Assembly: GCA_964497265.1 (NCBI GenBank)
Contig: CAZCCK010000004.1
Coordinates: 606 to 64,605 of the forward strand
Direction of reading: 5' to 3'
DNA: 64,000 nt
Origin: Candidatus Woesearchaeota archaeon
Lineage (GTDB): Archaea; Nanobdellota; Nanobdellia; SCGC-AAA011-G17; GW2011-AR18
The position numbers and the translations under genes were made by a program. The stretch's first letter is position 1. Every line of letters begins with the position of its first letter. Shown in pieces: positions 663-40,718 of the stretch. Under the pieces are notes generated by a model. That model saw only the letters and a list, made by a program, of their open reading frames with translations, made no database searches and was not told the DNA's origin.

Positions 663-693
663 TTTATATAGGTGTATTGATAAAGGAAGAGAA

Positions 694-1263: not shown

Positions 1264-1272
1264 GAGAAGCAT

Positions 1273-1932
1273 ATGCTTAAAAGAAAAAAGATGGTGAAGA
1301 AGAAAAAGAGTAAGAGTTTTTCAACTGAAAAGTTGTTAATTGTTGGTCTGCTTGTTCTTTCTTTCAGCTTTTTTGTACTCTATGGATTTTTGCCTCAGTT
1401 AAGTGTGACTGGTTTGGCTACGACGGCCACACAAGTAGGTAATCTTACTGTGGGTGTTCAAACCTTTATCGCTTGTACGTGGGCGAATAATGATTTTAAT
1501 ATAAGTTTTGGAGATAACATTAATCCGGGTACGAATGATTATAATGCTTCTCATAATTTTGATTATCCTAATACCAGTCTTGGTAGTGCTCAGGATTTGA
1601 ATAACGGGACGAGCTATAACATAAGTATAGATAGTACCACAAATGTTCAAACAAATGTAACAATAAAGGGATTACACTTCTTGTCTGGTGCAAATATTAT
1701 TGGTATTGGAAACGTAACGTGGGCTGGAAATACTACAAGAGCAAATGGAACGAATATGCTTCCTTCTACGAGTAATATTCTTTCGTTAAGTTATAATGCC
1801 ACAGTGCCAGTAGGTAGTTTGTTAAATGCAGGTGGTACTGCTTGGTTTAGGTTCTGGCTTGATGTTCCTGCTGGTGCTACCGCGGGTCAGTATAGCGGAA
1901 ACTTTACGCAGCAATGCTCGCAAGGAGTTTAA
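1273..1932 (+). CDS. Secreted sequon-rich protein with an N-terminal TM/signal; paralog of 1..662
   Basis: N-terminal Lys-rich region plus a hydrophobic helix. Many NxS/T sequons. Shares GVQTF and the C-terminal FWL..P.G...G.Y.GNFT motif with ORF 1..662. Confidence 0.55.
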   Translation: MLKRKKMVKKKKSKSFSTEKLLIVGLLVLSFSFFVLYGFLPQLSVTGLATTATQVGNLTVGVQTFIACTWANNDFNISFGDNINPGTNDYNASHNFDYPNTSLGSAQDLNNGTSYNISIDSTTNVQTNVTIKGLHFLSGANIIGIGNVTWAGNTTRANGTNMLPSTSNILSLSYNATVPVGSLLNAGGTAWFRFWLDVPAGATAGQYSGNFTQQCSQGV

Positions 1933-1933
1933 A

Positions 1934-2503
1934 ATGAAACTTACTCGCCTTTTACCTAGTCTTCTTTTATTTATCTTAGTGGTTAATCTTGCCTCAGCTT
2001 CTGTTGGGGTTGGGATGAATCCTGCGAAAGCGAGTTTAGTGTTAGAAGGTGGAAAAACGCAGACAATGGAAGTCACTGTTTTTAATACTGGAGATACGCC
2101 GTTAGAGATTAGTTTGCAAGCGGAAGGAGATATTGCTCCTTATGTTGATTTTGAGCCTAAAAGTGTTGTTGTAGATCCTGAACCTGTTCCGCATACGTTG
2201 CCTGTGAAAAATGGGAAAATTTTTACTGTGAAATTTACTCCTCCTGCAAGTTCGCAAGTTGTATCTTATAGTGGAGATATTGCGGCTACAGCTTTCGTTT
2301 CAAATGGGAATAATTTTCCTGGTACTGTCGGTACTGCGATGCTTGTTGAGGCTACTGTGAATCCTCCGCTTCCTTTGAAGGGCGTTTTGGGAGTGTTGAC
2401 TGTGCAACAACTTGTCTTAGTTGCTGCGATTATTCCGATGATTTTAAGTGTTTTCCTACTAATCAGACAGTCTTCCAAAAAGAAAAAGTCTAAAAAGAAA
2501 TAA
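1934..2503 (+). CDS. Secreted C-terminally TM-anchored protein; paralog of 694..1263
   Basis: An in-frame ATG at about 1934 (MKLTRLLPSLLLFILVVNLASA) gives a proper signal peptide. The upstream extension of the 1826 ORF overlaps the previous gene and is rejected. C-terminal TM plus a KKKKSKKK tail. Confidence 0.55.
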   Translation: MKLTRLLPSLLLFILVVNLASASVGVGMNPAKASLVLEGGKTQTMEVTVFNTGDTPLEISLQAEGDIAPYVDFEPKSVVVDPEPVPHTLPVKNGKIFTVKFTPPASSQVVSYSGDIAATAFVSNGNNFPGTVGTAMLVEATVNPPLPLKGVLGVLTVQQLVLVAAIIPMILSVFLLIRQSSKKKKSKKK

Positions 2504-2520
2504 TTCTAGACTTAACTGCT

Positions 2521-4137
2521 ATGAGGATAGAAAAGAGGTATGAAATTGGTGTTCTGTTATTTATCTTAATTATTTTTATTCTTTTAGTGAGTATTAAATT
2601 AAGCAATTCTCATATTACTACAGGTTTAAGTACGATGAGTGGTCAGCTTGGTTTTGGGATTGCTTCTTCTGAGCATTATCTTACCAATAACTTTCAAGTA
2701 GCGAATGAGACTACTCTAAATACTGGTTTGAATACAACGCTCATTTTAAGAGCGAATGCGACTGGAGAAGCGGGTTTTGTAAATCTCACTTTAAGTTCTT
2801 CTAATCCTACTTCGAATAGTTTTGTGAATAAAACTGCTCTTGATAAGTTTGCGACTTTAGAGACCAATATTAATTTTACAAATGCTACCCTTTCTTTTAA
2901 TTATAGTGACGGTGAATTAGGACAGTTAAACGAAAGCACATTAAGAATATATCATTACAATCAGAGTGGAGATTCTTGGACTCTTCTTCCTGGTGGGGTC
3001 GATCAAAGTGCTAATTTTGTGTATGGTCTTACAACAAGTTTTAGTCCTTTTGGTGTGTTTGGCGATCTGAAGAGTGATTCGGGGACTAATCCCGGTTCTA
3101 GTTCTTCTGGCAGTAGCGGTGGGGGAGCGAGTGGTGGCGGTGGAGGGGGCGGAAGTGCTAAACTAAAGAAGCCTGGAGATTTTGAGATTGTTCCTCCGAT
3201 TATGGCAATTACGTTAAGTAAAGGAAAGAGGGTATACGGCGCTGCTAAGATTACCAATACTGGCGGAAATGATTTGGTTCTAGCTTTGGATTTTGAGAAT
3301 CTTAATGAGTTTGATATTGACACTGAAAAGATTTTAACCTTAAAAGCTGGAGAAACTAAAGAGATCAAGTTAGGTTTTTCAGCAAAAGAAGGAACTCCTG
3401 AGGATATTTATCTTGGAAAGATTTTGGTTAAGAGTGAGAAGAGAGCTGAAGAAATAAATGTTATTGTTAATTTTAGACAGCAAGAATCTCTTTTCGATTT
3501 GAAAGTGAGGATTTTACCGGATTATCAGAATGTTAAGCGTGGCGCAAGAGTAATTGCGGGTTTAGAGATGCAGAATATTGGTACTCGTGGAAGGTTAATT
3601 GATGTTAATTTAAATACCTATATTACGGATTTTGATCGAAGAGTCGTATTACAATCTTCTAAAGAGACTGTGGCGGTTGGTGCTGAACTTGCATTGACAA
3701 GGGAGTTTAAGGTTCCTTCGGATATGAAGGATGGAAAGTATTTATTTGTCGCAGAAATGGATTATGGAAATGTAACTGTAAAAAGTTATGACCTTTTCGA
3801 AGTAGAAGGTGAGCTTCAAGGGGAGAAGACTGAGATCTTAAGTTCTAACTTTCAAGGAGAGCTAATTATCAGTCTTTTAATTCTTGTTGTAGGAGTAATA
3901 ATTGGTTTGTTTTATCTCAAACTAAGAGGATTAGATTTGAAGTTAAGTGGTTTGAACACGCGTAAAGTTGAAAAGCGACTAGTAAGCGAGTTAGAAGTCT
4001 TAGAGCAGCTTGAGAGATTAGATCAAGCGTATAAAGAGGGAGTGATCAGTACTGAGCATTATAGTGCTGCTCAAAACAAATTAATTAAAAAGTTAAAGAT
4101 GATTAAATTGTCTAAAGATGGGAAAAAATCTATTTAA
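2521..4137 (+). CDS. Surface protein with an N-terminal TM, a poly-Gly/Ser linker, a C-terminal TM and a cytoplasmic SHOCT-like tail
   Basis: SSSSGSSGGGASGGGGGGGS linker. C-terminal TM LIISLLILVVGVIIGLFYL followed by LEQLERLDQAYKEGVISTEHYSAAQNKLIKKL, which matches the SHOCT (short C-terminal domain) consensus. Confidence 0.5.
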   Translation: MRIEKRYEIGVLLFILIIFILLVSIKLSNSHITTGLSTMSGQLGFGIASSEHYLTNNFQVANETTLNTGLNTTLILRANATGEAGFVNLTLSSSNPTSNSFVNKTALDKFATLETNINFTNATLSFNYSDGELGQLNESTLRIYHYNQSGDSWTLLPGGVDQSANFVYGLTTSFSPFGVFGDLKSDSGTNPGSSSSGSSGGGASGGGGGGGSAKLKKPGDFEIVPPIMAITLSKGKRVYGAAKITNTGGNDLVLALDFENLNEFDIDTEKILTLKAGETKEIKLGFSAKEGTPEDIYLGKILVKSEKRAEEINVIVNFRQQESLFDLKVRILPDYQNVKRGARVIAGLEMQNIGTRGRLIDVNLNTYITDFDRRVVLQSSKETVAVGAELALTREFKVPSDMKDGKYLFVAEMDYGNVTVKSYDLFEVEGELQGEKTEILSSNFQGELIISLLILVVGVIIGLFYLKLRGLDLKLSGLNTRKVEKRLVSELEVLEQLERLDQAYKEGVISTEHYSAAQNKLIKKLKMIKLSKDGKKSI

Positions 4138-4503: not shown

Positions 4504-6240
4504 TTAATTTTTAGCTCCTTCCCTATTTAAAGTTTTTTTAAAAGGAAGTGTGAAGTAAAAAAGCGATCCCTTCCCTGGAGAAGACTCTACTTTTAGCTTT
4601 CCGCCGTGTTGTTCAACAATTCCTTTGCAAATGGCTAGGCCCAATCCTGTACCTTTTTCTTTTCTTTGATAAGAAGGCTTTACCTGGGAAAAAGGAAGGA
4701 AAAGTTTTCTAAGATTCTGTTGGGAGATGCCAATTCCGTTATCTTTGATTTTAATGAGGGCGAATGTTTTTTTGTTTTCAATGAAGATTTCTATTTTACC
4801 CTCTCTTTTCGAGCTGAATTTAATGGCGTTGTCTAGAAGGTTATTGAAAACTTCTCTTATTCTAACCGGATCGAAGAAGAATTTTGGAAGGGGAGATATT
4901 TTGGTTTTGAGCTGAATATTCTTTTTGGTAATGAGTGGTTTAAAATTTTCAACAGACTGTTCAAGTACTTTTTCAAGTGAAGTTTTTAGAGGATAAAGCT
5001 TCATCGCTTTGGATTGGATTTTTGAAGCGTCAAGTACCGAGGTAATAAGGGTATCAAGATTCTTAACATTTCTCAAAATCATTTGAATGCTTTTCTTTTG
5101 TTTATTCGAAAGTTTGCCAAAATCTTCTTTTAAGAGAAGTTCTGTTTGAATAAGGATGGGGGTGATTGGAGTTTTAAGCTCGTGAGAGGTATTGGTAAGA
5201 AATTGGAGTTTTAAATTATCTAAAGTTTTGAGTCGATCATAGGTTTTCTGTAATTTTTCTCTAAGAAGATGTTCTTCTTTAGCCGCTTTTTGGGTTTGCC
5301 TAGATTGTTTTGAAAGTTGGAGGTTTTGGTAAGAAATACTTTTTTCAAACTTATTATGCTCTTCAACAACTGAAGAGGTCAGAACGGTGATGAAAGCGAT
5401 GGTTCCAATAAATGCTTCAAAAAAAAGAAGGGTGTCGTTCGGTGACTGGGCGGCGAAGGGTCCTTTTCCTTGTAGGGTAAAGAAGAGAATGGCCAAAGAA
5501 AGAAGAAAGGTAATCGTTAGGGCGGTTCTTTTATCAAAGCGAAATGCAATCCAGATTAAGAGTGGAATGATAAGGACAAGGGGTGCTCTATTTTCCAGGC
5601 CGAATGATTCTGACTGAAAAGCAAGTAGGAAAAAGAGTATCAATAGAAAGGTCATTACCCCTAATTCTATAATCTTTGCTTTGGTATAACTCTTAAATGA
5701 AAATGGAGTGCTCCAGACGAGAATGAGGGGGGCGAATTTAAGCGCAGAAACAAGATCTCCGATCCACCAGGTGAACCAGACGTGACCGTAATTGGAGAGG
5801 GGATTGAGAGAGAAAAAAGTAAGGGCGGTAACCCCGATTGTTGCGCTAAGCAGAGTGCTTACCGAAGCGATGGCTAAGTAAGCTAATACTCCTTTGGAGC
5901 TCTCAAACACGCGAATTCCATTTGTGTATTTTCTGATAAGAAAAACTGCAAGAAATGCTTCAAGGGTGTTTCCTAAGGCAATGAAGAATGAAGAAGCTAT
6001 GAGTGAAGTAGTTGTAACATTAACAAAGTAAGCTCCTAAGAAGATCGCAGGCAGAATTTCGTATCCGAATAAAAGGAGGAGTGCAATGCTTAATCCGGTA
6101 GGCGGCCAGAACGCAGATGCGCTGGAGTTAAGGAAAGCCAACTTTAATCCAAGTTTTCCCGAAAGAAAGTAGATTGCGGTTATAACCAGCAGTTTAAGGA
6201 GGTAGCGAGGAAGTTTTTTGAGAATCTTTTGAGTATCCAA
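4504..6240 (-). CDS. Sensor histidine kinase with a polytopic N-terminal membrane domain (MASE1-like) followed by HisKA and HATPase_c
   Basis: H-box SHELKTP. N, G1 (DNGIGI) and G2 (GTGLGLAI) boxes. About 8 predicted TM helices at the N-terminus. Adjacent to the receiver gene on the same strand. Confidence 0.8.
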   Translation of the reverse strand: MDTQKILKKLPRYLLKLLVITAIYFLSGKLGLKLAFLNSSASAFWPPTGLSIALLLLFGYEILPAIFLGAYFVNVTTTSLIASSFFIALGNTLEAFLAVFLIRKYTNGIRVFESSKGVLAYLAIASVSTLLSATIGVTALTFFSLNPLSNYGHVWFTWWIGDLVSALKFAPLILVWSTPFSFKSYTKAKIIELGVMTFLLILFFLLAFQSESFGLENRAPLVLIIPLLIWIAFRFDKRTALTITFLLSLAILFFTLQGKGPFAAQSPNDTLLFFEAFIGTIAFITVLTSSVVEEHNKFEKSISYQNLQLSKQSRQTQKAAKEEHLLREKLQKTYDRLKTLDNLKLQFLTNTSHELKTPITPILIQTELLLKEDFGKLSNKQKKSIQMILRNVKNLDTLITSVLDASKIQSKAMKLYPLKTSLEKVLEQSVENFKPLITKKNIQLKTKISPLPKFFFDPVRIREVFNNLLDNAIKFSSKREGKIEIFIENKKTFALIKIKDNGIGISQQNLRKLFLPFSQVKPSYQRKEKGTGLGLAICKGIVEQHGGKLKVESSPGKGSLFYFTLPFKKTLNREGAKN

Positions 6241-6347: not shown

Positions 6348-6956
6348 ATGCCTCAATTATCTGAAGAGCAGATTAATCAAATTAAGAAGTTTGTTGAAAC
6401 TTTTCCTGAAGAGGAGAGAGAGGCAAAATTAGAAGAAATTCTTTCTCAGCTTGTTGAGGAAGATAAGAAGCCTCAAGCAGTCCAGTGTCCGTTTTGTTTG
6501 ATGGGTGAGGGGAAATTAAAAACACAAAAAGTTTTTGAGGACGAAAGGTTTCTTGCTGTGTTAGAAATTAATCCTGCAAATCCGGGGCATATCCTTGTTT
6601 TTCCAAAAAAGCATCTTGCTGATCTACACGCTCTTGAAAATAGTCTTGTTGATTTTTTACTTCTTATTCATAATCTCTCTTCAAGTTTATTGAAATTTAA
6701 TGCGGGTGTGAATGTACTTGTTTCTCTGGGTGTTCTTGCAGGTCAGAAGTTTCCGCATCTTGTAGTGCATATTCTTCCCAGAGTAGAGAAGGATGCGGTT
6801 ACACTTTCTTGGAAAGGAAAGCCGCTAAGTGAGCAAGAGTTAAATGCTTTAAGAGAAAAGATTGCTGCAGGTCTAGTAAAGAAAGAGCCTGAAAAAAAGG
6901 TAGATCCTGAGAAGTTTAAGTCAAGATTGATTAAACCTGAGAATAGAATGCCTTAG
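6348..6956 (+). CDS. HIT-family (histidine triad) hydrolase with an N-terminal extension containing CPFC
   Basis: C-terminal histidine triad PHLVVHILPR (HxHxHxx). NPANPGHILVFPKKH core. Confidence 0.65.
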   Translation: MPQLSEEQINQIKKFVETFPEEEREAKLEEILSQLVEEDKKPQAVQCPFCLMGEGKLKTQKVFEDERFLAVLEINPANPGHILVFPKKHLADLHALENSLVDFLLLIHNLSSSLLKFNAGVNVLVSLGVLAGQKFPHLVVHILPRVEKDAVTLSWKGKPLSEQELNALREKIAAGLVKKEPEKKVDPEKFKSRLIKPENRMP

Positions 6957-7942
6957 AAAAGAGAGGTGAGGTGTGTCCAGAATAAGGTTAAGAGTAGCGC
7001 GAAGAAAAATGCGGGCACGAAAGGTATTCCTTCCTTAACTAAAACTTTTTTAATACCGTGTTTTTTAAGAAGCTCGATTTGTTTTTTTTCAAGTCCTAAA
7101 TCTTTGGGAGTACAGATTGTTTTAGAACCTACTTTAACGGTATTTAGTACCCAGTCTCCTTCTGTTAATTTTTCTACGTTCATCCAAGATTGCATGCTTA
7201 TCTTTTCAACAATTTTTACAAAGAAATAGAGATTGAAAAAGAAATAAACAAAGACAATACTGATAAGAAAGAGGGTCTGATAGATTTCTGTCAGAAAGAA
7301 ACTAATGCTGAGGAGAAGGAGAAATGCTAAAAGCGCGAAGAGGAAGTAATTTCTATTTTGCTTTTTAAGTTCTTGTTTAATTCTTTTCCAGTGTTTTATG
7401 CTTAATCCTAATGTGTAGAATAATCCGTAGAGAGATCCTGCAATAAAGAGGTTAAGGATGAAGAGCGCTAAGAACGGCCAAGGAGAGGTTAATCCGCTGA
7501 TGGGAAGACCGTTTCCAAAGATTGCGCCTACGCCCATAAGGAGTTTACTGTCTCCCCCTCCCCACTGTTTTGTGTAATAAAAAAGGTTGGCGATAACAAA
7601 AGCTGCTCCGAAAGCGAGTAATCCTGTAAGAAAAGGCAAGTAGTCTTTTAAGAGAACAGACTCTAAAGCTCTACTTCCTAATCCTGCGAAGATCATACCA
7701 TAAGAAAGCCAGTCTGGAACTTCTCTTTTTTTTAGATCTGTGATGCTTGCAAGTGTTATTCCAAGAAAACCAATAATTAAGAGCAGGAATTCAATCATAG
7801 ATTCTTTTGGGTAAGAAGCCTTTTTAATGTTTAGCATTTTTCTTTTCAAATGATTTCGATTATTGGTGCGGGTCCTGCTGGTTCTTATGCCGCTTATTTG
7901 CTGGCTAAGGCTGGAAAAGAAGTTCATGTATACGAAGAACAT
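6953..7942 (-). CDS. Archaeal type IV prepilin/preflagellin peptidase (A24 family, FlaK/PibD-like); the true start is probably the internal Met near 7798
   Basis: ASITDLKKREVPDWL (first catalytic Asp motif) and QWGGGDSKLL (second Asp motif, GGGDxKL) lie within a polytopic membrane protein. The first 48 codons of the ORF are Arg/Asn-rich and non-membrane, so they are probably not translated. Confidence 0.7.
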   Translation of the reverse strand: MFFVYMNFFSSLSQQISGIRTSRTRTNNRNHLKRKMLNIKKASYPKESMIEFLLLIIGFLGITLASITDLKKREVPDWLSYGMIFAGLGSRALESVLLKDYLPFLTGLLAFGAAFVIANLFYYTKQWGGGDSKLLMGVGAIFGNGLPISGLTSPWPFLALFILNLFIAGSLYGLFYTLGLSIKHWKRIKQELKKQNRNYFLFALLAFLLLLSISFFLTEIYQTLFLISIVFVYFFFNLYFFVKIVEKISMQSWMNVEKLTEGDWVLNTVKVGSKTICTPKDLGLEKKQIELLKKHGIKKVLVKEGIPFVPAFFFALLLTLFWTHLTSLF

Positions 7943-8923
7943 GAAGTGATTGGTAATCCGATCCAGTGTAGTGGAGTGATTACTCCTGCGATTGAAGCGT
8001 TAATTCCTTTAAACAAGGAGATTATTGTAAATAAAATAAACAAAGTAAGGTTTCACGCTCCAAATGGTTCTTTCTTTGATGTGAAAATTAAAGAGGATTA
8101 TGTGTTTGATCGAGCAAAGCTAGATCAGTATATTGCTTCTCTCGCACAGGAGGCTGGCGCGGTCTTCCATCTAGGAAAACGTTTTCAAAGTTTTGAAAAA
8201 AAGGTAGGTAAAATAAAACTAAATTTTTCTTCTGCAAATGTTGAAACAGACATCTTGGTTGGTGCTGACGGTCCTCATTCATTAGTTGCTAAATCCGCGG
8301 ATTTATTTGAAAATAAAGATTTCATTGTGGGTATTCAGGCAAGAGCCAAAGCGCAAGTAATAGATAAACATCTTGTTGAGATTTTCTTAGGCTATGGTGA
8401 TTTTGGATGGTTGATTCCTGAAGATGAAGAAACTGCTCGTATTGGGGTTGTTGCTCACCGGGAATGTAAAAAAGAATTCGATCAGTTAATGAAATTAAGG
8501 GGCGGGAAGTTTATTTGCTATCAGTCTGGCTTGATTCCCTTATATAATAAAAAGATAAAAACTCAAAAAGGAAATGTCTTTTTGATTGGAGATGCTGCAA
8601 GGCAAGTGAAAGCAAGTACCCATGGAGGAATTCTATTCGGAATGCTTGCAGGTAAATCTTTAGCGAAAGCAATTCTCGAAGGAAAGGATTATGAAAGGTT
8701 GTGGAAAAAAGAATTAGGCCTTGATTTGTGGCTAAACTTAAAGATTCATGAAACGTTAAGGAAGTTTTCTGAAGAAGATTTAAATGAGCTTGTAAGGTTA
8801 TTTTCTCAAGAAAAACTAAAATCGATTCTTAGTTCAAACGTGAGGGATTTTCCAAGCAAATTTATTATAAAAATGCTTTGGACAGAACCTAGATTGTTAA
8901 AATTTGCTACAAAGCTACTTTGA
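7850..8923 (+). CDS. FAD-dependent geranylgeranyl reductase family (archaeal lipid saturation)
   Basis: N-terminal Rossmann motif IIGAGPAGSYAAYLLAKAG. GxGxxG. Length and order are typical of the GGR family. Confidence 0.7.
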   Translation: MISIIGAGPAGSYAAYLLAKAGKEVHVYEEHEVIGNPIQCSGVITPAIEALIPLNKEIIVNKINKVRFHAPNGSFFDVKIKEDYVFDRAKLDQYIASLAQEAGAVFHLGKRFQSFEKKVGKIKLNFSSANVETDILVGADGPHSLVAKSADLFENKDFIVGIQARAKAQVIDKHLVEIFLGYGDFGWLIPEDEETARIGVVAHRECKKEFDQLMKLRGGKFICYQSGLIPLYNKKIKTQKGNVFLIGDAARQVKASTHGGILFGMLAGKSLAKAILEGKDYERLWKKELGLDLWLNLKIHETLRKFSEEDLNELVRLFSQEKLKSILSSNVRDFPSKFIIKMLWTEPRLLKFATKLL

Positions 8924-8926
8924 AAT

Positions 8927-9436
8927 GTGGTTTTTTTAAAAGCAAAATATATTTATAGTTCTTATTTAACGGGGGGTGGTATGGAAAAAGATTTAGAGAG
9001 TATCACTCTTCAAGAAAGTTCTTCTAGTAGAGAAGATGAGACTATTCGCACTTTAAGAACACAAGCAGAATCTTTTCTAAAAGGGACAGGATTGTTTGTT
9101 TTTAAAAAGAATGCAGGTAAGATGCCTCAGGAATATAAGGGAACGCTTTATGCTCGTAACCCTAATGGGATTTATCTAAATCTTAGTAAAACTGATGAAG
9201 AGGTCGAATTTTTCCCTTATGCTTCGATTTCTGCAATTTATAGGGGAATAGATGCGTCTGATAAGTATCAAGATCCTATTTTAGTAACCCGGATTGTTGA
9301 AAGTAAAGATGGGACTGGGTGGGTATTCACTGAACCGAATGGAGAGCAGAAGCTTGTTGAAAAAGTGGTGGTTACTCCTTATTCCAAAAAGAATGGTATA
9401 TTGCCCATTGTGAAAGAAGAGTATTCGCCAGATTAA
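8927..9436 (+). CDS. Hypothetical protein (GTG start)
   Basis: 169-aa ORF with coding-like composition and no recognisable motif. Confidence 0.35.
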   Translation: MVFLKAKYIYSSYLTGGGMEKDLESITLQESSSSREDETIRTLRTQAESFLKGTGLFVFKKNAGKMPQEYKGTLYARNPNGIYLNLSKTDEEVEFFPYASISAIYRGIDASDKYQDPILVTRIVESKDGTGWVFTEPNGEQKLVEKVVVTPYSKKNGILPIVKEEYSPD

Positions 9437-10488
9437 ACGATTTTATATCTAAGTAAAGCTGCAATGCCTCCAAGCCCATCTAGTTTTTCTCCCGCTTCGT
9501 GATCTGAAGAGATAATGCAGATAAAGCCTTTATGTTGTTCTACTGTCTTCATAATCTTATTGAGTTCTTCATAATTTTCTTCATGCATTTTTTTCCGAAT
9601 AAAACTATCTGTAAGGAGTAAGTTTTGTACTGCTCCACTTGGTGCTGCTTCTAAAACTTCATAAAAGCCGTAAACGCAAGGCTCGTTCTTAGCTATCGCT
9701 TTTAAGAGTTCTTCGACTAAAGCAACTTCTTTGCTTATCCGTTCGTCATGTAAAGCCTGTTTGACTTCGTCTCTTTTCAAAAGTTCGTTGATTCCACTTG
9801 GGCCTGTACTGTGGCAGCTTGCTAAGATGACTTTGGATTTTAATCCTGCCGGAAGTCTTTTGTAAATTTCATCCTTCCAAAACGCGGGACTTCCAATGAT
9901 AATTTTTTCAAGATGCATTCTTTCGGCATAACCCTCTAAGATTTTAATTACTTCTTCATAAAAATCTGAGCGAATGGTTTCTTTATTATACTTTTTTTCA
10001 ACTTCTCCTTTTACTTCGCCTAAGTAATCATACCCATATTTTTTTAAAAGTGCGAAATAAGCTTCTTCCCGTTCTAAGGTGCAGAGTAAGATTTTGCTTC
10101 CTTTTTCTTTGCTTGCTTCTTGGATGTGGCGTACCTCAAAGTCAAGAAAAGTGTCTTTTTGTATTTCCAGGGTGGTGTCTGGTTCAACATTTAAGGTGTG
10201 ATAGCTTCCATGTGGTACGTCCTCTGGTCCTTCGGTGACGGTACCGTTAATCCTAAGACTTTGTTGGTATTTGTCAAATTCTATTTTTTCTGTTTTTAGG
10301 CGGATAATAATTGGTTTTTTGACTGAAGCTGATTTTTCCTCTGTTCCGCCGAGTTTTATTTTTCGATAGCTTCGACCTTTGACAAGGTCATTCTTGTGAA
10401 GAATCTGGCTTAAGTGCCAGAGATCGTCTAAAGTTTCTATTTTGAGTTTTGCATAGCCTTTTTTGAAGTCTGCGGTGAGGATGTGCAT
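9433..10488 (-). CDS. Pelota/Dom34 (mRNA surveillance; eRF1-like)
   Basis: N-terminal ...LKIETLDDLWHLSQILHKNDLVKG..R matches the Pelota N-domain. Size is 351 aa with an eRF1-like C-terminal domain. Confidence 0.7.
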   Translation of the reverse strand: MHILTADFKKGYAKLKIETLDDLWHLSQILHKNDLVKGRSYRKIKLGGTEEKSASVKKPIIIRLKTEKIEFDKYQQSLRINGTVTEGPEDVPHGSYHTLNVEPDTTLEIQKDTFLDFEVRHIQEASKEKGSKILLCTLEREEAYFALLKKYGYDYLGEVKGEVEKKYNKETIRSDFYEEVIKILEGYAERMHLEKIIIGSPAFWKDEIYKRLPAGLKSKVILASCHSTGPSGINELLKRDEVKQALHDERISKEVALVEELLKAIAKNEPCVYGFYEVLEAAPSGAVQNLLLTDSFIRKKMHEENYEELNKIMKTVEQHKGFICIISSDHEAGEKLDGLGGIAALLRYKIV

Positions 10489-10549: not shown

Positions 10550-11746
10550 ATGTGGTTCTTTGTTCTTATGCGGTTTAAAAAAGGCCAGGTGTCTGAGGGT
10601 AAGTTTGTTGCCTCTCTTATCTTTTTGATTGGTTTTGCTATTGTTTTGTATGTGCTGTTTATTCCTCCTGCTGATCGTCAGCAGTTATTGTCTGGATCTA
10701 ATGATTCCGATTTTGGAATAGGTTCTGGTCGTATCGAATTATTATCTGAATCTCCTGGTTTTATTTCTCCTAATCGCGCGTTTGGAGTAGTTCATCAACT
10801 TCCTTCTGTGAATATTTTTGTGAAAAAAGAGCCTAAGGTTCTTAACCTCGCACAAAGTTTAAATGTCAAGCGAGGTTGGTTTTCTAAGTCTTTTCCTATG
10901 ACGAGTTTTGAGATGACTGATTCTGATTTGAAGAAGGTCACGTTAGTGTTTTCAGTGAGTCAGCCTGAAGGGGAATTAAGAATCCTTTTGAACGGGAATA
11001 CTTTTTTTGCTCAAGAAGTTAGTCCCGGATTAAAAGTGATTGAAATTCCTTTAAATTTGATTCAATCGAGGAATACGTTAGAATTTGAAGTTTCTTCTCC
11101 GGGTATTGCTTTCTGGGCGACGAATCAGTATGTGCTGTCCGATGTTACGTTAAAGGAAGAGTTTGAACGTATTCATGCTGAAGAGTCAAGACAGTTTAGT
11201 GTAACAAGCGAAGAAAAGAGTAATTTGCAATCTGCCCATCTGAGTTATTTCCAATTCTGTAATTTAGCTTTACCTGAGCAAACTGCAGCTTTGAAGATTT
11301 ATCTCAATGACGAATCTGTATTTTCTGGTTTAATTAGATGTATTAGTACGCAGCAGACTATAGACTTAGATAAGTCTAAATTAGTCAGCGGGCTAAACAC
11401 ATTAAGATTTATTTTAGAACAGGGCGATTTTACTTTTAATGAAGTGAAAGTTGAGACTGATTCAAAGCAACTTCAAAATCCAACCTATTTGTTTAGTCTT
11501 TCTAAAGAACAAATGGATGATATTAAAGCTCAAAAGAGAGAATTAGACTTAAGTATGTTCTTGGAAGATACGCAAGTAAATAAGAAAGCCAAGATTTTAG
11601 TGAATAATCATGCATTATTCTTAGATACGGCTTCAAGTTCCTATAAACAGAACATCAAAGATTATGTGAATGAAGGAACGAATCATATTCAGATCATTCC
11701 AAGTAATAGTTTTAATCTTGTAGGTTTGAAAGTTGTTTTAGGTTAA
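10550..11746 (+). CDS. Pilin-like (class III signal peptide) secreted protein
   Basis: N-terminus FKKGQVSEGKFVASLIFLIGFAIVLYVLF. KG then Q at +1 followed by a hydrophobic stretch resembles archaeal type IV pilin signals. Confidence 0.5.
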   Translation: MWFFVLMRFKKGQVSEGKFVASLIFLIGFAIVLYVLFIPPADRQQLLSGSNDSDFGIGSGRIELLSESPGFISPNRAFGVVHQLPSVNIFVKKEPKVLNLAQSLNVKRGWFSKSFPMTSFEMTDSDLKKVTLVFSVSQPEGELRILLNGNTFFAQEVSPGLKVIEIPLNLIQSRNTLEFEVSSPGIAFWATNQYVLSDVTLKEEFERIHAEESRQFSVTSEEKSNLQSAHLSYFQFCNLALPEQTAALKIYLNDESVFSGLIRCISTQQTIDLDKSKLVSGLNTLRFILEQGDFTFNEVKVETDSKQLQNPTYLFSLSKEQMDDIKAQKRELDLSMFLEDTQVNKKAKILVNNHALFLDTASSSYKQNIKDYVNEGTNHIQIIPSNSFNLVGLKVVLG

Positions 11747-11750
11747 TGCG

Positions 11751-13115
11751 ATGAGGAAAGGTAAACGCGGGCAAGCTAGTTCTTCGTCAGGTGGTCCGAT
11801 AAGTCATAGTTTAAGTGTGCTCTTTGAGATTTCTTTTTTCGTTTTAGTTATTGTTGTTATTGTTGTTGCCGGAATTATCGTTTTTCAAAGGTATCAAAGT
11901 GGTCAAGGTGCGACTGCGGTGGCGCATGTTGGGGTAGCAGCTGAAAATACTGGTGCGCAAAAGTACGCAAAGTATCTTCCGTCTGTTCTTGCCGATGCTT
12001 TATTTAACACAAATGAGGTGTATGGTTTTGAGTCGGAGATTGATAAAAGTCAGATTCAAGAGGTGGGTATTAAAGATATTCGGCTTCAACAGTTAGGGAG
12101 GTCTGAATATGATCAGCCTATTGAGGTCTTAGGAAGATTTTTAGCGAGCAGTCCGTTGCAGGATTTATCTTTGACTGTTGATTGTCAGTTGGAAGAAGGA
12201 GAAAAAGTCCCTGCTTCTGTTTCCGCAACGTTCGCGCAGGGAAATGTTGCTACAATTCCTAAGGGAACAAGTGAAGTGATTACTGCTTCTTGTCGTTTTC
12301 CTCAGGGTATTAGCGCTAAAGACAGTACCTTTATTGCAAATCAAGCTCCTTCGTTTTCAAATCCTGTTCCTACAACTCAAGAAGTTCCCTTGCAGATTCC
12401 TGGAAAGGTGAATATGTTTATTCGTTACGAGTTTGCTTCTAAGGCGAGTCATAAGACGTATTTATTGAGTAAAACTACTGCAGCTCAGTTGCAAAGAAGA
12501 GATCCTCCTGTAAGTGCGTTTGATTATTATGGTGTTTCTGATCCTCAACTAAATAGGCAAGAGTGGAAGATTAAGTCTGTTGCTACTCCTGGTCCTTTGA
12601 ATCTGGGTATTGGTACCTATGCCAGTCAGCCTTTTGTGGAGGAGGTTCCGCATCCTTTTGCTGTTTCTTTATCGAATAATCTTGTTGGTTGGAATGGTCA
12701 GCTAAAAAAGTTGGAATCTTTGGACGTACTTGTTCCTCCCTATATGCGTTTAGAGACTGATGCTGATTATGCGGCTACGCAGACAACGAGTACTTGTCCT
12801 TTTGTGTATAGCGGGGAGGGTTCTGAAGGGTTTAGGCAGTATGTTTTGAAAGATGAGGTTTTAGCCAGGGTTAATCAAGAGTGTGATAAAGAAACGTTGC
12901 AGTCTTCAAAGCTCACGCAGTCTGAATGTGAAGATCTTTTTAGTAAAGAGCAGGATAAGTTGTTTGCTTGTAACTTTAAGTATAGTGAACCGTTTAATTC
13001 GTTAAAGTACGATTTTATTCGTGCTGAGACAAAATATCTGTATGAAACCAAAGAAGCTCTTGTTGTTACTGCTTACAGGCCAATTGGAGTGCAATCTTCT
13101 AGTAGGGTAGCATAG
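11751..13115 (+). CDS. Membrane-anchored secreted protein with a KGKRGQ N-terminus and Cys-containing extracellular domain
   Basis: N-terminal basic KRGQ followed after a Ser/Gly stretch by the TM helix FFVLVIVVIVVAGIIVF. No known domain. Confidence 0.45.
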   Translation: MRKGKRGQASSSSGGPISHSLSVLFEISFFVLVIVVIVVAGIIVFQRYQSGQGATAVAHVGVAAENTGAQKYAKYLPSVLADALFNTNEVYGFESEIDKSQIQEVGIKDIRLQQLGRSEYDQPIEVLGRFLASSPLQDLSLTVDCQLEEGEKVPASVSATFAQGNVATIPKGTSEVITASCRFPQGISAKDSTFIANQAPSFSNPVPTTQEVPLQIPGKVNMFIRYEFASKASHKTYLLSKTTAAQLQRRDPPVSAFDYYGVSDPQLNRQEWKIKSVATPGPLNLGIGTYASQPFVEEVPHPFAVSLSNNLVGWNGQLKKLESLDVLVPPYMRLETDADYAATQTTSTCPFVYSGEGSEGFRQYVLKDEVLARVNQECDKETLQSSKLTQSECEDLFSKEQDKLFACNFKYSEPFNSLKYDFIRAETKYLYETKEALVVTAYRPIGVQSSSRVA

Positions 13116-13152
13116 AAACCTTTTTATTTAGTATTCTTCTTTCTTCTTTTTA

Positions 13153-14073
13153 ATGAAAAAGAGTCTTGTTTTTTGTTTAGTCTGTTTATTATTTTTAGCA
13201 GCCTGTCAGTATCTTCCTTTTCAATCGTCAGGAAGTGTTGTTTCTGGTAAAGGGGTTAAAGTGGAGTTTGTCGATTATCCTTCTGGAAAGCTTGGTGAAG
13301 GGGAGCTTTTCTCAGTGAGAACAAGAGTAACAAATTATAATCCTTCTTCGCCAGTTCAGGGTCAACTTTGTATTGCTGATTTTGTTTCTAAACGTTTAGG
13401 GGGAATTCCTGAAAATACGTGTCAAGATTTCATTGTTGAGAAGGCTGAAGTTGTGAATAGTAAGGTGTATGAACAGGCGAAAGAGCAAATTTTCAGTAGT
13501 TATTCGTATCATGATCTTGAGCCAAACGTTCCTTATACAGATAATATTGGTGCTATCTTTACCTATAGTGTCGCGTCTGACCATATTCTTGAAGGGTTAT
13601 GTGTAAAGACTTCTGAAAGTGTAAGAACAAGTGATGTCTCAGCAAGTAAATGTAGTAAGTCCGAATCGTTTTCTTCTGTAAAGCAGCCTGATACTCCGAT
13701 TCGAGTGACGAGTATTACTAAAGACGTGAATTATCTTGGAAATCAACAGGCTAATGTACGTTTAACAATTGATTTAAAGAAAGTAGAGGATGGAGATGTT
13801 GTGTCGTCAGAACTTGCGGATAGTTCTGCAAATCCATTCTCCGCTGTTCCTTTTATTGATTTTGATCTAAATTATGCTGGTGTGCCTTTTGAGTGTCCAG
13901 GTGTGAACGCAGGCAGGTTGCAGTTCGGGCAAGCAGAGAAAGAGATATCTTGTCATGGATTAGTAAATGTTCCTGGAGAGTTTTTGAGTGAACCTTTGGT
14001 TATTCGTTTAGGGTATAGTTTCAGAAAAACGATTCAGACACCTTCGTTTACGGTTTATTCAAATAGGGTCTAG
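13153..14073 (+). CDS. Lipoprotein-like secreted protein; paralog of 14097..15068
   Basis: Signal with a lipobox-like LAAC. Shares the PIRVTSI / PIQVTSI block and Cys spacing with the next gene. Confidence 0.5.
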   Translation: MKKSLVFCLVCLLFLAACQYLPFQSSGSVVSGKGVKVEFVDYPSGKLGEGELFSVRTRVTNYNPSSPVQGQLCIADFVSKRLGGIPENTCQDFIVEKAEVVNSKVYEQAKEQIFSSYSYHDLEPNVPYTDNIGAIFTYSVASDHILEGLCVKTSESVRTSDVSASKCSKSESFSSVKQPDTPIRVTSITKDVNYLGNQQANVRLTIDLKKVEDGDVVSSELADSSANPFSAVPFIDFDLNYAGVPFECPGVNAGRLQFGQAEKEISCHGLVNVPGEFLSEPLVIRLGYSFRKTIQTPSFTVYSNRV

Positions 14074-14096
14074 AAACGAAAAGATTTATTAATGAA

Positions 14097-15068
14097 ATGA
14101 TGCTAAAGCAAGTTGTGGAAAAAAAGATGAAGAAGGTGTATTTGTTTTCATTGTTTTCTATTCTCTTACTCTTAGCCGCATGTAGTTCTTCTAAACCTGC
14201 TGCTACAAAGGCGGGTTTTATTGGTGGAAAGGAAGGTCTTTCTCCTTCGTTGAATGTCTTATCTGGAAAAGCGAATGAAGTGTTAGATGCTAATCTTGAG
14301 GATTTTCAGATAGCTGTTAATTTGCAGAATAAAGGGGAGTATGCAGTTCAGCAAGATGAAGTGTTGGGTACCGTGACGGGTGTAGATTATAATTCGTTTT
14401 CTTTGACAACTCCTTCTTTAAGAAATGTTGAGCCTTTAGAGAAAGTAAGGTCTGATCAAAGTAAATCTGTTGCTGGCGGTCAGACTGTTTTATCTTTTCC
14501 TGCTAAGTTTAGAGATGATCTTCCTGTGGATCAAGTATATGATCTTGGTGTGAATGTATGTTATAAGTATCAAACTGGTGCTACTTCGAGTCTCTGTTTA
14601 AGAAGAGAAGCTACTAAGAGAGGAGAATCCTCTGATAAGTGTAGTGTGAATAATAATCCTGTTATTGGTTCTTCTGGTGCTCCGATTCAAGTAACGTCTA
14701 TTTCTCAAAGACCTACGGGCGCGAATGAGATTTCTTTTACGATTGCTATTGAGAACGTGGGTAAGGGAGATGTATATCCTCCTACGTTCATTCAGACAAA
14801 TCAGCAGTGTTTAGAGAAGAATGATGTGAAAAATAAATTCCAGATCGCGCTTTCTTTCCCTGAGAATAAGCCTGCGATTTCTTGTCCTGCTTTGGCAAAT
14901 GCAAATCAAGGAATGTTGCAGTTAATTCAAGGAAAAGCGACTTTAACCTGTAAGATCGATACGTCTCAAGAGCAGGATACGACTTTCTCAAGAAGTCCGA
15001 ATATTCAGTTAGATTATGTGTATAAGGATCTTGTTTCAACAAAAATCACCGTAAGGAATGCTGCTTAA
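14097..15068 (+). CDS. Lipoprotein-like secreted protein; paralog of 13153..14073
   Basis: Signal LLLAACSSS. Conserved blocks are shared with the previous ORF. Confidence 0.5.
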   Translation: MMLKQVVEKKMKKVYLFSLFSILLLLAACSSSKPAATKAGFIGGKEGLSPSLNVLSGKANEVLDANLEDFQIAVNLQNKGEYAVQQDEVLGTVTGVDYNSFSLTTPSLRNVEPLEKVRSDQSKSVAGGQTVLSFPAKFRDDLPVDQVYDLGVNVCYKYQTGATSSLCLRREATKRGESSDKCSVNNNPVIGSSGAPIQVTSISQRPTGANEISFTIAIENVGKGDVYPPTFIQTNQQCLEKNDVKNKFQIALSFPENKPAISCPALANANQGMLQLIQGKATLTCKIDTSQEQDTTFSRSPNIQLDYVYKDLVSTKITVRNAA

Positions 15069-15070
15069 TA

Positions 15071-15760
15071 ATGGCGCTTTTGCATGACGAACTAAAAAGT
15101 AAGTTTTCTGTCTGTGAGAAATCTGCTTATCGCGCCTGGGATGCAGTAAGTTTAATTCTTAATCGGAAAAATAAGTTAGAAGAAGCGAAATCAGCTATCT
15201 GGCAGTTGGAAAAAGAGTTCAAAGAGGTTGGCATTATTCTTAGTGAAAAGAGAAGTGCTTTAAGTGAGTACGATCGTTTGTTAACAAACGCTGTTGAAAA
15301 TTTAAAGAAGTATCAAGAATCTAAAAAGAAGAGTTATTTAGAAGAGGCAGGAGTTGTTATGAAATTAATTGGGCGTCTTTGGGGAAAGGAGTGGGGTTTT
15401 GGAAGATCCTATGATGAAAAGCTTTCTTCTTTGCTTAGTGGGATGAGCTCAAGTTCTTATGCAGGTCAGATCTATCGATTAGAATCAACTCTTCTAAAGG
15501 GGTGGAGGTATATCTTGGAGGCTATGGATGCACTGCGCTTAGAAGAGGAAGGTACAGCGTTGGTCGCCATTAATAATTCTGAAAAGATTTTAAAAACAGC
15601 TTATCTCCAGTTAGGAGATGTAGAAAAGACGTTCAAAAGTTTTTATAATGAGATTCTAGAAGCTGAAGAATTGGTGAGCGGTCCGCTTATAGGCGGTAAG
15701 TTTAAAAAAGCGACATTTATTTTAAAGGATTTTTATGATTATTCAAGAAAGTTACGATAA
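15071..15760 (+). CDS. Hypothetical cytoplasmic helical protein in the surface-protein operon
   Basis: ORF only. The gap to the previous gene is 2 nt. Confidence 0.4.
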   Translation: MALLHDELKSKFSVCEKSAYRAWDAVSLILNRKNKLEEAKSAIWQLEKEFKEVGIILSEKRSALSEYDRLLTNAVENLKKYQESKKKSYLEEAGVVMKLIGRLWGKEWGFGRSYDEKLSSLLSGMSSSSYAGQIYRLESTLLKGWRYILEAMDALRLEEEGTALVAINNSEKILKTAYLQLGDVEKTFKSFYNEILEAEELVSGPLIGGKFKKATFILKDFYDYSRKLR

Positions 15761-15799
15761 GTAAGGAAGGTTTATATAAGAAGAATCTTATTCTATAAG

Positions 15800-16477
15800 G
15801 TGGAGGATAAGCAAGCGTTTGCAGAATATTTAAAAGACAGTAAAGGCTTATTTTTTGAGACATCTTTTTTTAAAACGTTTAACAAGTATATCGGTGCGTG
15901 TTTAAGTGATTCTGCTACTATTTTAGAAGAGTTGAAAGAAAAAAATCCCCAGGTCAGATTACTTGATCTTAATCTAATAAAACTTATTTCTACGTTAAGA
16001 GGAGCGCGAGGGTTTGCTTTAGAAAAACAAAGTTTTCTTAATGAATATGAAAGTAATCTTAATGAAGTGTTGAAGGGAAAATTGGCTAAACTTAGTTCTG
16101 CGGACAATTATCTAGATGGGTTGTTCGGGTTTTCAGAACTTAAGGGATTTACGAAAGAAAAAAGAATTAATCCTCTTTATTCAAGACTTTTTGGGTATGG
16201 GTTTCTTTGCCAGTCTTGTACGAAGAATGCATTAGTGGCTATTAGTTCGAAGCAAGAGAGTAGTATAAGGTATTATCTTACAATGCAATTGAGTGAGCAA
16301 GGGTTAGGCGGTCTTAAAAGGGAGATGCAAAAGATTGTTGATGCAATGCAAATGTATGAAACACAAGCAAAGCAGGTAATTCATTTGGTAAAAGAGAATA
16401 AACTTGTTGATGCTAAGAAGAGTGTGGAAGGGTTGAGGTTGACTTTTGCTTCTCAATGGATTGAACGTCCAATTTAG
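15800..16477 (+). CDS. Hypothetical protein
   Basis: ORF only. Confidence 0.4.
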   Translation: MEDKQAFAEYLKDSKGLFFETSFFKTFNKYIGACLSDSATILEELKEKNPQVRLLDLNLIKLISTLRGARGFALEKQSFLNEYESNLNEVLKGKLAKLSSADNYLDGLFGFSELKGFTKEKRINPLYSRLFGYGFLCQSCTKNALVAISSKQESSIRYYLTMQLSEQGLGGLKREMQKIVDAMQMYETQAKQVIHLVKENKLVDAKKSVEGLRLTFASQWIERPI

Positions 16478-16512: not shown

Positions 16513-17751
16513 ATGAGGTTTATAGGAGATTTTCATATTCATGGAAGATTTGCAGGTGCTTGCTCTAAAGATATTACCTTAGACAAGTTAGAGGAGTATG
16601 CAAGAATAAAAGGAATTAATGTTTTGGGTGTTGGAGATTTTACTCATCCTCAATGGTCAAAGGAAATCAAAGAAACGTTGAATGAAGATGAGAATGGGAT
16701 TCTCTGGAGTAAAAGTAATTTTCCTTTTATTTGGCAGACTGAAATTTCTATTGTGTATAGCCAAGGTGGAAAAGGAAGAAGATTGCATCATTTAGTGCTT
16801 GCTCCGAATGGAGGGGTTGCAGATCAGATTACAGAGTGGTTAAAGAAGAAAGGAAGAGTAGATTATGATGGAAGGCCTATTTTTGGAATGAGCAGTATCC
16901 AATTTGTTGATGAATTAATGTGCATTTCAAAAGAGATTGAAGTTATTCCTGCACATTGTATGACTCCTTGGTTTGGACTTTATGGTAGTAAATCTGGTTT
17001 TGATTCTTTGAAAGAATGTTTTGAGGAGAAGGAGAAATATATTCATGCTGTTGAAACGGGAATTAGTGCAGATCCAAAAATGTTAGCCCAATTTTCTCAT
17101 TTGAAGGAAAAAAGATTTGTTTCTTTTTCAGATAATCATTCTTACTGGCCTTGGCGGTTAGGACGAGAAGCAACGTTTTTTGATTTGAAAGAATTGTCTT
17201 ATGCAAATATACTCAAAGCGATTCGTACAGGAATAGGATTCGGGGGTACAATCGAGTGTCCTCCTTCTTTTGGCAAATATCACTTTTCAGGACATCGGTT
17301 GTGTAATGTTTCTTTTAATCCTGAAGAAACCAGGAAGTTGAAGGGTATTTGTCCTGTTTGCAAGAAAGAACTAACAATTGGGGTAGAGGACAGGGTAGAA
17401 GAGCTTGCAGATACAAAAGCTACTAATATTCAAAGTTTTATAGAAGTGATTCCTTTAACTGAGTTGATAACTTTTCTGTATAAGATTAAACAGCCCGGTT
17501 CTAAGAAGGTCTGGGGGGTTTATAACTCTTTAATTAAGAATTTTGAAAGTGAATATAAGGTGCTTTTAGAAGTTTCTTATGGAGATTTAATGAAGGTTGT
17601 TGATGAAAAATTAGCTAAGCTAATCTTATTAAACCGACAAGGGAAGTTAGAGCTCAAGCCAGGGTATGATGGGGTGTACGGTGAAATTGTTTTAGAGGCA
17701 GAGCAGATGCAGCCTCAAAAAAAGAAACAAAAGAGTTTAATTGATTTTTAG
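16513..17751 (+). CDS. PHP-domain nuclease, endonuclease Q-like (PHP fold plus a C-terminal zinc ribbon)
   Basis: N-terminal GDFHIHGRFAGACSKD (PHP HxH). C-terminal CNVS...CPVCKKE zinc ribbon. About 410 aa, as in archaeal EndoQ. Confidence 0.45.
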   Translation: MRFIGDFHIHGRFAGACSKDITLDKLEEYARIKGINVLGVGDFTHPQWSKEIKETLNEDENGILWSKSNFPFIWQTEISIVYSQGGKGRRLHHLVLAPNGGVADQITEWLKKKGRVDYDGRPIFGMSSIQFVDELMCISKEIEVIPAHCMTPWFGLYGSKSGFDSLKECFEEKEKYIHAVETGISADPKMLAQFSHLKEKRFVSFSDNHSYWPWRLGREATFFDLKELSYANILKAIRTGIGFGGTIECPPSFGKYHFSGHRLCNVSFNPEETRKLKGICPVCKKELTIGVEDRVEELADTKATNIQSFIEVIPLTELITFLYKIKQPGSKKVWGVYNSLIKNFESEYKVLLEVSYGDLMKVVDEKLAKLILLNRQGKLELKPGYDGVYGEIVLEAEQMQPQKKKQKSLIDF

Positions 17752-40626: not shown

Positions 40627-40718
40627 GGGCTCATGGTCTAGTGGCTATGACACAACCTTGACGTTCTCTTCGGAGATCAAAATGGTTGTAGTCGCAGGTT
40701 CGAGTCCTGCTGGGCCCA
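40627..40718 (+). tRNA. tRNA-Val (anticodon GAC) with a canonical 37/38 intron of about 19 nt (40664-40682)
   Basis: GGGCTCA-TG-GTCTAGTGGCTATGAC-A-CAACC-TTGACG[intron ttctcttcggagatcaaaa]T-GGTTG-TAGTC-GCAGG-TTCGAGT-CCTGC-TGGGCCC-A. The intron contains the hairpin TCTC-TTCG-GAGA. Confidence 0.7.

Follow-up and report, generated by a model that had tools for sequence, protein, structure and literature searches.

A conserved four-gene module of predicted membrane-tethered, β-rich surface proteins in Woesearchaeota-type DPANN archaea

In a stretch of 64,000 nucleotides from a Candidatus Woesearchaeota archaeon (contig CAZCCK010000004.1, positions 606 to 64,605; this whole stretch is called the window and its first letter is position 1) we analyzed six consecutive genes of the plus strand, named P1 to P6, which lie between the genes for Pelota and Endonuclease Q (EndoQ). 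Judged from gene order and sequence profiles, the conserved unit is P1-P2-P3-P4 (10568–15068), a clade-wide chromosomal module of Woesearchaeota-type DPANN archaea, and each of its four members is predicted to be anchored in the membrane and to carry a β-rich ectodomain. We propose, with a probability of roughly 0.55, that P1 to P4 form a heteromeric, membrane-tethered, glycan-binding envelope complex without an enzymatic or energy-coupling component. An earlier note, made from the sequence of the window, had taken all six genes as a single operon for a dedicated surface module with cytoplasmic assembly factors. The surface module withstood the comparison with related genomes, as four membrane-tethered β-sandwich or jelly-roll ectoproteins are found together across different genomic contexts. 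The single operon did not, as among 96 related loci the gene order is conserved for P1 to P4 only and none has P5 or P6.

The window has a GC content of about 0.37 and belongs to a DPANN archaeon of the Woesearchaeota/Nanoarchaeia type. The named homologs of these proteins come from metagenome-assembled genomes of 'Candidatus Woesearchaeota' or 'Nanoarchaeia', and in the window the module is flanked by housekeeping genes of archaea (Pelota, eIF2α, TruD, FtsY/SRP54, TFB and intron-containing tRNAs). The six tightly spaced open reading frames (ORFs) described earlier are indeed present at 10550–11746, 11751–13115, 13153–14073, 14097–15068, 15071–15760 and 15800–16477, with gaps of 2–39 nt. At the base composition of the window, 229 codons would stay open by chance with a probability of about 7e-8, so that all six can be regarded as real, and in the annotation that NCBI gives for the source contig P2 to P6 have the same coordinates and P1 starts at 10568. 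This start of P1 (MRFKKGQ; NCBI P0024), which agrees with the ortholog alignment and has a TTAAATAT box about 20 nt upstream, is most likely the correct one instead of 10550, and P4 most likely starts at 14127 (MKKVYLF) instead of 14097. The near-equal tight spacing runs on past P6 into the unrelated EndoQ gene, so that spacing alone cannot define an operon. Scans of all six proteins against Pfam, NCBIfam, PHROGs and PADLOC and PDB sequence and profile searches with P1, P2, P4, P5 and P6 gave no significant match, and no relationship was seen in BLASTP comparisons of P3 with P4, P5 with P6 and P2 with P3/P4. Since the profile searches were also negative for archaellum and S-layer families, the statement of the earlier note that no member falls into a family that can be named still stands.

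To describe the conservation of the module we used nine GTDB genomes, ENA and Logan contigs found via homologs of P4 and P1, and 80 further metagenome loci. All neighbour counts refer to 96 related loci with 2,341 ORFs, some of them on contigs of 0.3–1.2 Mb, of which 41 carry P1 and 38 a member of the P2 family. In the subclade of the window, represented by the nine GTDB genomes and the ENA and Logan contigs, the order is HIT, the signal peptidase gene PepA24 (minus strand), a geranylgeranyl-reductase-like gene (GGR), P1, P2, P3, P4, EndoQ and eIF2α (minus strand). The commonest order elsewhere, seen in the metagenome loci, is Pelota (minus strand), P1, P2, three lipoprotein genes and the RFC small subunit gene (minus strand), and this arrangement, with three lipoproteins of the P3/P4 type, is also the ancestral form. 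The order P1-P2-P3-P4 recurs in about 40 loci, and the internal order is kept in at least three genomic contexts (TopoVI/RFC, Pelota/RFC and GGR/EndoQ), and in most lineages the module is flanked on both sides by housekeeping genes of the opposite strand. The closest relative with known context, L016 (P4 72% identical), and L003 (66%) have EndoQ directly after P4, as do L009 and others. In relatives unrelated cargo genes have been inserted between GGR and P1, between P2 and P3 and between P4 and EndoQ (L004 8121–9026; L006 10909–11561 and 5115–5626; L007 8578–9030 and 10953–12756; L001 10973–11698), among them PIN/VapBC-like and RelE-like toxin pairs, Nudix, HIT and histidine phosphatase genes. 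In L004 the insert between P2 and P3 encodes a P-loop ATPase (301 aa) that is anchored by a transmembrane (TM) segment.

In none of the loci does the module include an ATPase, platform or enzyme gene; it contains no glycosyltransferase gene, and no ABC transporter genes are linked to it. A secretion ATPase of the PilB/FlaI type was found neither in the conserved neighbour families of the 96 loci nor among the window ORFs scanned with Pfam, and these ORFs include no platform gene. The IMG/VR viral contigs contain no relatives of P1 or P3/P4, and the module is chromosomal, not viral. Compared with L001 and L004, P1 is 42 and 41% and P4 53 and 43% identical, with values of 42 and 41% for PepA24 and 48 and 45% for HIT; the identities of P1 and P4 to their relatives (31–53%) are in the range of PepA24 and HIT at the same loci.

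P1 (10568–11746, plus strand, extendable to 10550) is a protein of 392 aa that consists of a short N-terminal motif, a TM helix, a linker and three jelly rolls. Its N-terminus reads KKGQ followed by the hydrophobic helix, and among 74 unique P1 sequences the N-terminus is dibasic in 72, with [KR][GAS][QEAVG] in 71 and [KR][GA]Q in 44, a few residues before the helix. In distant lineages small residues run straight into the helix, as in MVKRGQAAGGAAILIIVIA, and in the window clade a polar xEG spacer separates motif and helix. The FlaFind rule (Szabó 2007) asks for hydrophobic residues directly after the cut, and window P1 departs from it. The N-terminus of P1 fits a class III signal with the helix retained, cleavage being putative. 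No other segment of P1 is as conserved as the TM helix, which ends with LFIPPxER, and this extreme conservation argues for a specific partner inside the membrane. The three jelly rolls are conserved evenly and show no hypervariable or distal variable domain.

An AlphaFold2 model of P1 based on 44 homologs (pLDDT 87.7, pTM 0.45) shows helices at residues 11–31 and 34–41, a disordered linker (42–52) and three β-sandwich domains, which is not the α/β structure of a pilin. Using Foldseek against the PDB, galactose-binding-like jelly rolls were retrieved with probabilities of about 1.0 and TM-scores of 0.15–0.26, which are low because only single domains superpose; the matches comprise C-terminal domains of GH35 β-galactosidases, the carbohydrate-binding domains of BcsB, Cry toxins, reelin, CBM51 and malectin-like domains. 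The Pfam model of BcsB scores 17 bits on window P1, below its cut-off of 21, and covers profile positions 23–106 of 606; a BcsB match is recorded for 10 P1 homologs.

P2 (11751–13115, plus strand, 454 aa) is a membrane protein in which a short cytoplasmic tail and one TM helix precede a Cys-rich ectodomain of disulfide type, and its gene is always located between P1 and the lipoprotein genes. Within the window subclade the cytoplasmic tail is variable, the TM helix single and the ectodomain about 360–400 aa long. In most other lineages the orthologs have 500–1050 aa and 3–7 predicted TM segments before the C-terminal ectodomain of about 330–420 aa, which is always present, and a long charged N-terminal tail is frequent. 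These cytoplasmic tails of polytopic orthologs (for example L012 5614–7581, L014 11342–13210 and L021 2826–5981) are K/E-rich, of low complexity and 100–200 aa long and are absent from window P2. The ortholog alignments of the ectodomain show invariant Cys and the motifs GVK, GP.NLG, QP and C.F...Y.Y. Neither P2 nor its long polytopic orthologs match T2SSF or any other Pfam family, and P2 has no relative in the PDB. The ectodomain is collinear with the second half of the P3/P4 family, with the pairs FnFxT and CYxYxT, GPVxIG and GAPVQVT, LeNnW.G and ENxGxG and a terminal YxY hairpin. The hhalign probability of 6–9% is sub-significant, and we take this likeness as a hint and do not claim homology.

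The earlier note had described the N-termini of P1 and P2 as pilin-like or anchored. For P2 the N-terminal membrane anchor was borne out, and as its 'RGQ' is not conserved in the orthologs P2 appears to be a plain signal-anchor protein instead of a pilin-like one. From the two pilin-like proteins there remains the conserved class-III-like motif of P1, on a protein whose model does not have the pilin fold.

P3 (13153–14073, plus strand, 306 aa) and P4 (14097–15068, plus strand, 323 aa, or 313 aa from the probable start at 14127) are predicted Sec-type lipoproteins. Both have the lipobox LAAC, which in P3 is conserved among the orthologs, and the pattern [LVI][ASTVI][GAS]C was found at the end of both signal peptides, lipidation itself being predicted. 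The lipobox Cys is invariant in three family alignments (A1, A4 and A5) and six further Cys of the ectodomain vary little or not at all. DPANN archaea are reported to have lipoproteins as a prevalent class of proteins (PMC12462473), which is consistent with a real lipid anchoring of P3 and P4. By their profiles P3 and P4 are true paralogs, as the earlier note had suggested and BLASTP misses: the profile of the P4 family finds P3 over 273 columns (96.3% probability, E 1.6e-9) and a profile-profile comparison of both using hhalign covers 281 columns (99.2%, E 2e-19).

An exhaustive search with a hidden Markov model of the P4 family resulted in at least 2,513 clusters of 50% identity with E<=1e-3, of which 1,741 have E<=1e-10 and 472 E<=1e-30, the first number being a lower bound for the size of the lipoprotein family. 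Nearly all of these clusters are 300–335 aa long, and among the top 150 matches the lipobox is found in 119 and the CYxY signature in 148. The family has no Pfam model; CARDB matches 2 of 34 P3/P4 relatives weakly (E about 0.003) and neither P3 nor P4. The three positional lipoproteins of the other lineages are paralogs of one family (at least 99.9%). The third one, next to RFC, has its ortholog in P4 (E 2.8e-74), and P3 is about as close to each of the three as to the others (E 1e-23 to 1e-27), from which it follows that the window subclade has lost one copy. The AlphaFold2 model of P4 (pLDDT 87.7, pTM 0.79) shows the signal helix, a disordered tether of about 10 residues that follows the lipobox, and two β-sandwich domains whose strands are unusually long. 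In Foldseek searches of PDB and BFVD it retrieved generic tandem Ig-like proteins only (TM-score at most 0.26, 5–13% identity), namely integrin legs, the MSCRAMMs ClfA, ClfB and SdrG, RbmA, CfaE, transglutaminase barrels and the soluble domain of STT3. A capsid or double jelly roll was also considered for P4 and rejected (PM2 P2 with probability 0.38 and TM-score 0.15, the BFVD matches being generic), and an internal duplication of its two domains (D1 against D2) is not supported.

P5 (15071–15760, plus strand, 229 aa) and P6 (15800–16477, plus strand, 225 aa, GTG start) are soluble orphans outside the conserved module. As already stated in the earlier note both lack signals, with neither TM nor signal segment and, for P5, a maximal 19-residue hydropathy of 0.66. 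Both are singleton clusters. A search of 5.8 billion protein clusters with P5 retrieved P5 only, and phmmer with P5 and P6 found no homolog among the ORFs of the related loci; P6, for which no dedicated search of large protein databases was made, has no homolog among viral contigs. P5 starts 2 nt past the stop of P4, so that both are probably co-transcribed in this genome, and TATA-like boxes, which were judged by eye only, are located about 25 nt upstream of P6 (TTTATATA) and of EndoQ. The missing homologs in the related loci and the cargo-prone slot between P4 and EndoQ identify P5 and P6 as lineage-specific insertions. Another lineage-specific orphan is the ORF of 169 aa at 8927–9436 (plus strand) between GGR and Pelota, which overlaps the 3' end of Pelota by 4 nt and has neither a family match nor a counterpart in the related loci.

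The divergent gene at the upstream boundary encodes Pelota (aRF1 family, 9433–10488, minus strand; Pfam eRF1_1/2/3). It has a homolog in 19 related loci, and in all loci that extend over the left boundary it stands immediately upstream of P1 in divergent orientation. EndoQ (16513–17751, plus strand; phmmer to PfuEndoQ, 5zb8, E 1.3e-49), an unrelated DNA-repair gene, is the downstream boundary in the window subclade. The class III signal (prepilin) peptidase PepA24 (Peptidase_A24, PF01478, E 6e-13; 6953–7849, minus strand) is encoded 2.7 kb upstream of the module and outside of it, and is a candidate processing enzyme for P1. A homolog is present in 11 of the 96 loci, near the module only in the window subclade, and is absent from the loci flanked by Pelota and RFC. 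The longest ORF of PepA24 (6953–7942, minus strand) overlaps GGR (7850–8923, plus strand) by 93 nt; with the internal start at 7849 (298 aa) there is no overlap and the length matches that of the orthologs (277–304 aa).

For a module of fixed composition that encodes only membrane-tethered, β-rich ectoproteins with three anchoring modes and neither an enzyme nor a motor, a stable heteromeric surface complex is the simplest explanation. In such a complex P2 would be the membrane platform and the lipoproteins P3 and P4 would form a membrane-proximal layer, with P1 as a distal, lectin-like arm on a flexible tether. P1 would probably be cut by the nearby class III signal peptidase and keep its helix as anchor like bindosome-type binding proteins. 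Its jelly rolls might bind a glycan, which could be part of the cell's own glycocalyx or S-layer or a surface polysaccharide of a partner cell. The housekeeping-like rates, the housekeeping flanks and the lack of a hypervariable domain make a constitutive envelope or contact function likelier than a fast-evolving adhesin for host specificity.

Several observations weigh against such a complex. The window subclade does without the polytopic part of P2, which leaves the role of P2 as platform uncertain, and unrelated genes stand between P2 and P3 in L004 and L007. The stoichiometry does not seem to be fixed, as the reduced loci L011 and L085 encode P1 and one lipoprotein only. That the four proteins join in one complex is what we infer, glycan binding by P1 is suggested by a fold resemblance with the low TM-scores given above, and β-sandwich folds are typical of adhesins as well. 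A more far-reaching version, in which P1, P2 and a variable number of P3/P4 lipoproteins are the main envelope machine of Woesearchaeales-type DPANN archaea and replace a conventional S-layer or form an apparatus for cell–cell contact of these episymbionts, is put forward as a tentative and rather doubtful idea. This machine would combine a class-III-anchored arm of three lectin-like domains, a polytopic platform and three paralogous lipoproteins and would have no homolog among the characterised surface systems.

It could also be possible that P1 is cleaved by PepA24 and enters a pilus- or bindosome-like structure with P2 to P4 as accessory or anchoring proteins, the assembling ATPase and the platform being encoded elsewhere in the genome. 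This would be in line with the [KR][GA]Q motif or a close variant, which precedes the helix in 71 of the 74 P1 sequences and does so also in distant lineages with the hydrophobic stretch directly after it, with the pilin-like trait that the helix is the most conserved part, with the vicinity of PepA24, with the textbook class III signal of another surface protein of the window (at 41149) and with the reported wide distribution of class-III-signal binding proteins (bioRxiv 10.64898/2026.04.22.720090). The same work names ATPase, platform protein, pilin and class III peptidase as the parts that a type IV filament system requires. We consider this explanation unlikely: no ATPase or platform gene is found in or adjoining the module in the 96 loci or among the window ORFs scanned, PepA24 is a neighbour in one subclade only, the P1 model is not a pilin α/β fold, P2 is not pilin-like and in the window clade the polar spacer lies between motif and helix. 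Overlapping with the proposed envelope complex is a set of host-attachment adhesins, in which the P1 lectin and the adhesin-like Ig-fold lipoproteins bind the polysaccharide or S-layer of a host. The best structural neighbours of P4 are adhesins or matrix proteins (MSCRAMMs, RbmA, integrin legs, CfaE), P1 is CBM-like, the lifestyle of DPANN archaea is described as mostly episymbiotic and the window also encodes murein-hydrolase and sialate-esterase-like surface proteins. The matches of P4 are generic, however, and neither the housekeeping-like conservation without a hypervariable or distal variable domain nor the fixed core synteny resembles typical contingency adhesins, which makes dedicated host adhesins improbable in our view.

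An even smaller chance is given to nutrient uptake, in which P1 and the lipoproteins would bind substrates and pass them to a permease that the polytopic domain of P2 provides. P2 is polytopic in most lineages, and lipoproteins and class-III-anchored binding proteins are the usual solute receptors of archaea (bioRxiv 10.64898/2026.04.22.720090), but neither an ATPase nor a recognisable transporter family nor a periplasmic-binding-protein fold was found, and the number of TM segments in P2 varies widely, down to one in the window subclade, where the ectodomain is kept. Hardly any weight is left for the six-gene operon with P5 and P6 as dedicated cytoplasmic assembly factors, the assignment made in the earlier note, which is already contradicted. 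Six co-directional, tightly spaced genes and the 2 nt between P4 and P5 speak for it. Against it, no related locus, not even that of the closest relative, has P5 or P6, P5 is an ORFan, and the slot between P4 and EndoQ holds unrelated cargo elsewhere, with the equal spacing continuing to EndoQ.

Further loci of the window also encode surface or signalling proteins. At 41149–52940 (plus strand) a cluster of four genes encodes very large secreted proteins of 716, 1760, 1214 and 242 aa, the first of which begins with MGKRGQVTVFVVLGLIIL, a textbook class III signal, and the third of which combines Peptidase_M23, Amidase_2 and SLT, bacterial murein-hydrolase domains in an archaeon. A co-occurrence of the module with this cluster, which the earlier note had considered, was checked at the level of the loci and a linkage was rejected, as a neighbouring gene of the 41149 type is present in only 1 of the 96 loci. 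The protein of 974 aa encoded at 37561–40485 (minus strand) has fibronectin type III and SASA (sialate O-acetylesterase-like) domains and is probably another glycan-directed surface protein. The five consecutive ORFs at 12–4137 (plus strand; 216, 189, 219, 225 and 538 aa) have no Pfam match; two of the five have an N-terminal signal or TM segments, and they may represent another uncharacterised surface cluster. Two signalling genes are present in this reduced DPANN genome, a MASE1-HisKA-HATPase sensor histidine kinase (4504–6240, minus strand) and a stand-alone adenylate/guanylate cyclase domain protein (36624–37301, plus strand). Three tRNA genes are located at 40627–40718 (plus strand), 58808–58964 (minus strand) and 35523–35583 (plus strand). 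Two of them, with 92 and 157 nt, are far longer than 76 nt and presumably contain introns, and ARAGORN assigned no anticodon to the one at 40627–40718.

Woesearchaeota-type DPANN archaea, an abundant and uncultivated group, are presumed to live attached to other cells, and the module bears on how they build their envelope or contact their partners. It is among the few multi-gene units of unknown function that are conserved across the group and combines three different modes of membrane anchoring, a class-III-like helix, TM segments and lipoboxes. A full-text literature search found no published description of it. New are the way in which the proteins are combined, how widely this combination occurs and how large the unannotated lipoprotein family is. 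The domains themselves are ordinary, and with these common types of β-sandwich no new biochemistry is implied and current concepts are not overturned. With this knowledge, concrete targets are at hand for antibodies, labelling in cryo-electron tomography, glycan arrays and heterologous expression, and the large new lipoprotein family could be used to test the recently found archaeal lipidation enzymes AliA and AliB.

Among known systems, BcsB (PF03170) is similar to P1 as both are membrane-anchored extracytoplasmic proteins and the jelly rolls of P1 resemble the carbohydrate-binding domains (CBD) of BcsB (Foldseek probability 1.0, E 4e-7). An identification of P1 as BcsB was nevertheless rejected: P1, an all-β protein of three jelly rolls in its model, lacks the flavodoxin-like domains (FD) of the CBD-FD-CBD-FD architecture of BcsB, it is anchored at the N-terminus and not at the C-terminus, no BcsA-type synthase is linked to it, the TM-scores are about 0.25 and the Pfam score is below the cut-off. 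With bindosomes and type IV filaments P1 shares the basic [KR][GA]Q motif, the conserved hydrophobic helix, a large non-pilin ectodomain and an A24 peptidase encoded in the same genome region. It differs in the lectin-like jelly-roll ectodomain instead of a solute-binding fold, in its putative cleavage and, in the window subclade, in the polar spacer that splits motif and helix. As the module contains no ATPase or platform gene in any locus, it was rejected as a type IV filament locus, and without a solute-binding fold or a linked ABC transporter it is not a classical bindosome.

P3 and P4 resemble tandem Ig-like and CARDB proteins and lipoprotein adhesins such as MSCRAMMs, RbmA and archaeal surface lipoproteins in their predicted lipid anchor, their two β-sandwich domains, their NxGxG-type turns, their tandem arrangement as paralogs and the weak CARDB matches of a few relatives. 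They are distinct from all of these in having no significant sequence match or global structural match, in the GG.EG after the lipobox, CYxYxT, NSGAPVQVT and the six conserved Cys, which are unique to the P3/P4 family, and in that the family always occurs with P1. Two-component archaeal S-layers such as SlaA/SlaB of Sulfolobales consist of one or two subunits and not of four to five distinct mid-sized ones, and searches of Pfam and PDB matched the module proteins to known S-layer proteins neither by sequence nor by fold. What SlaA/SlaB and the module would have in common are co-encoded, membrane-anchored β-sandwich proteins of the envelope and a clade-wide conservation.

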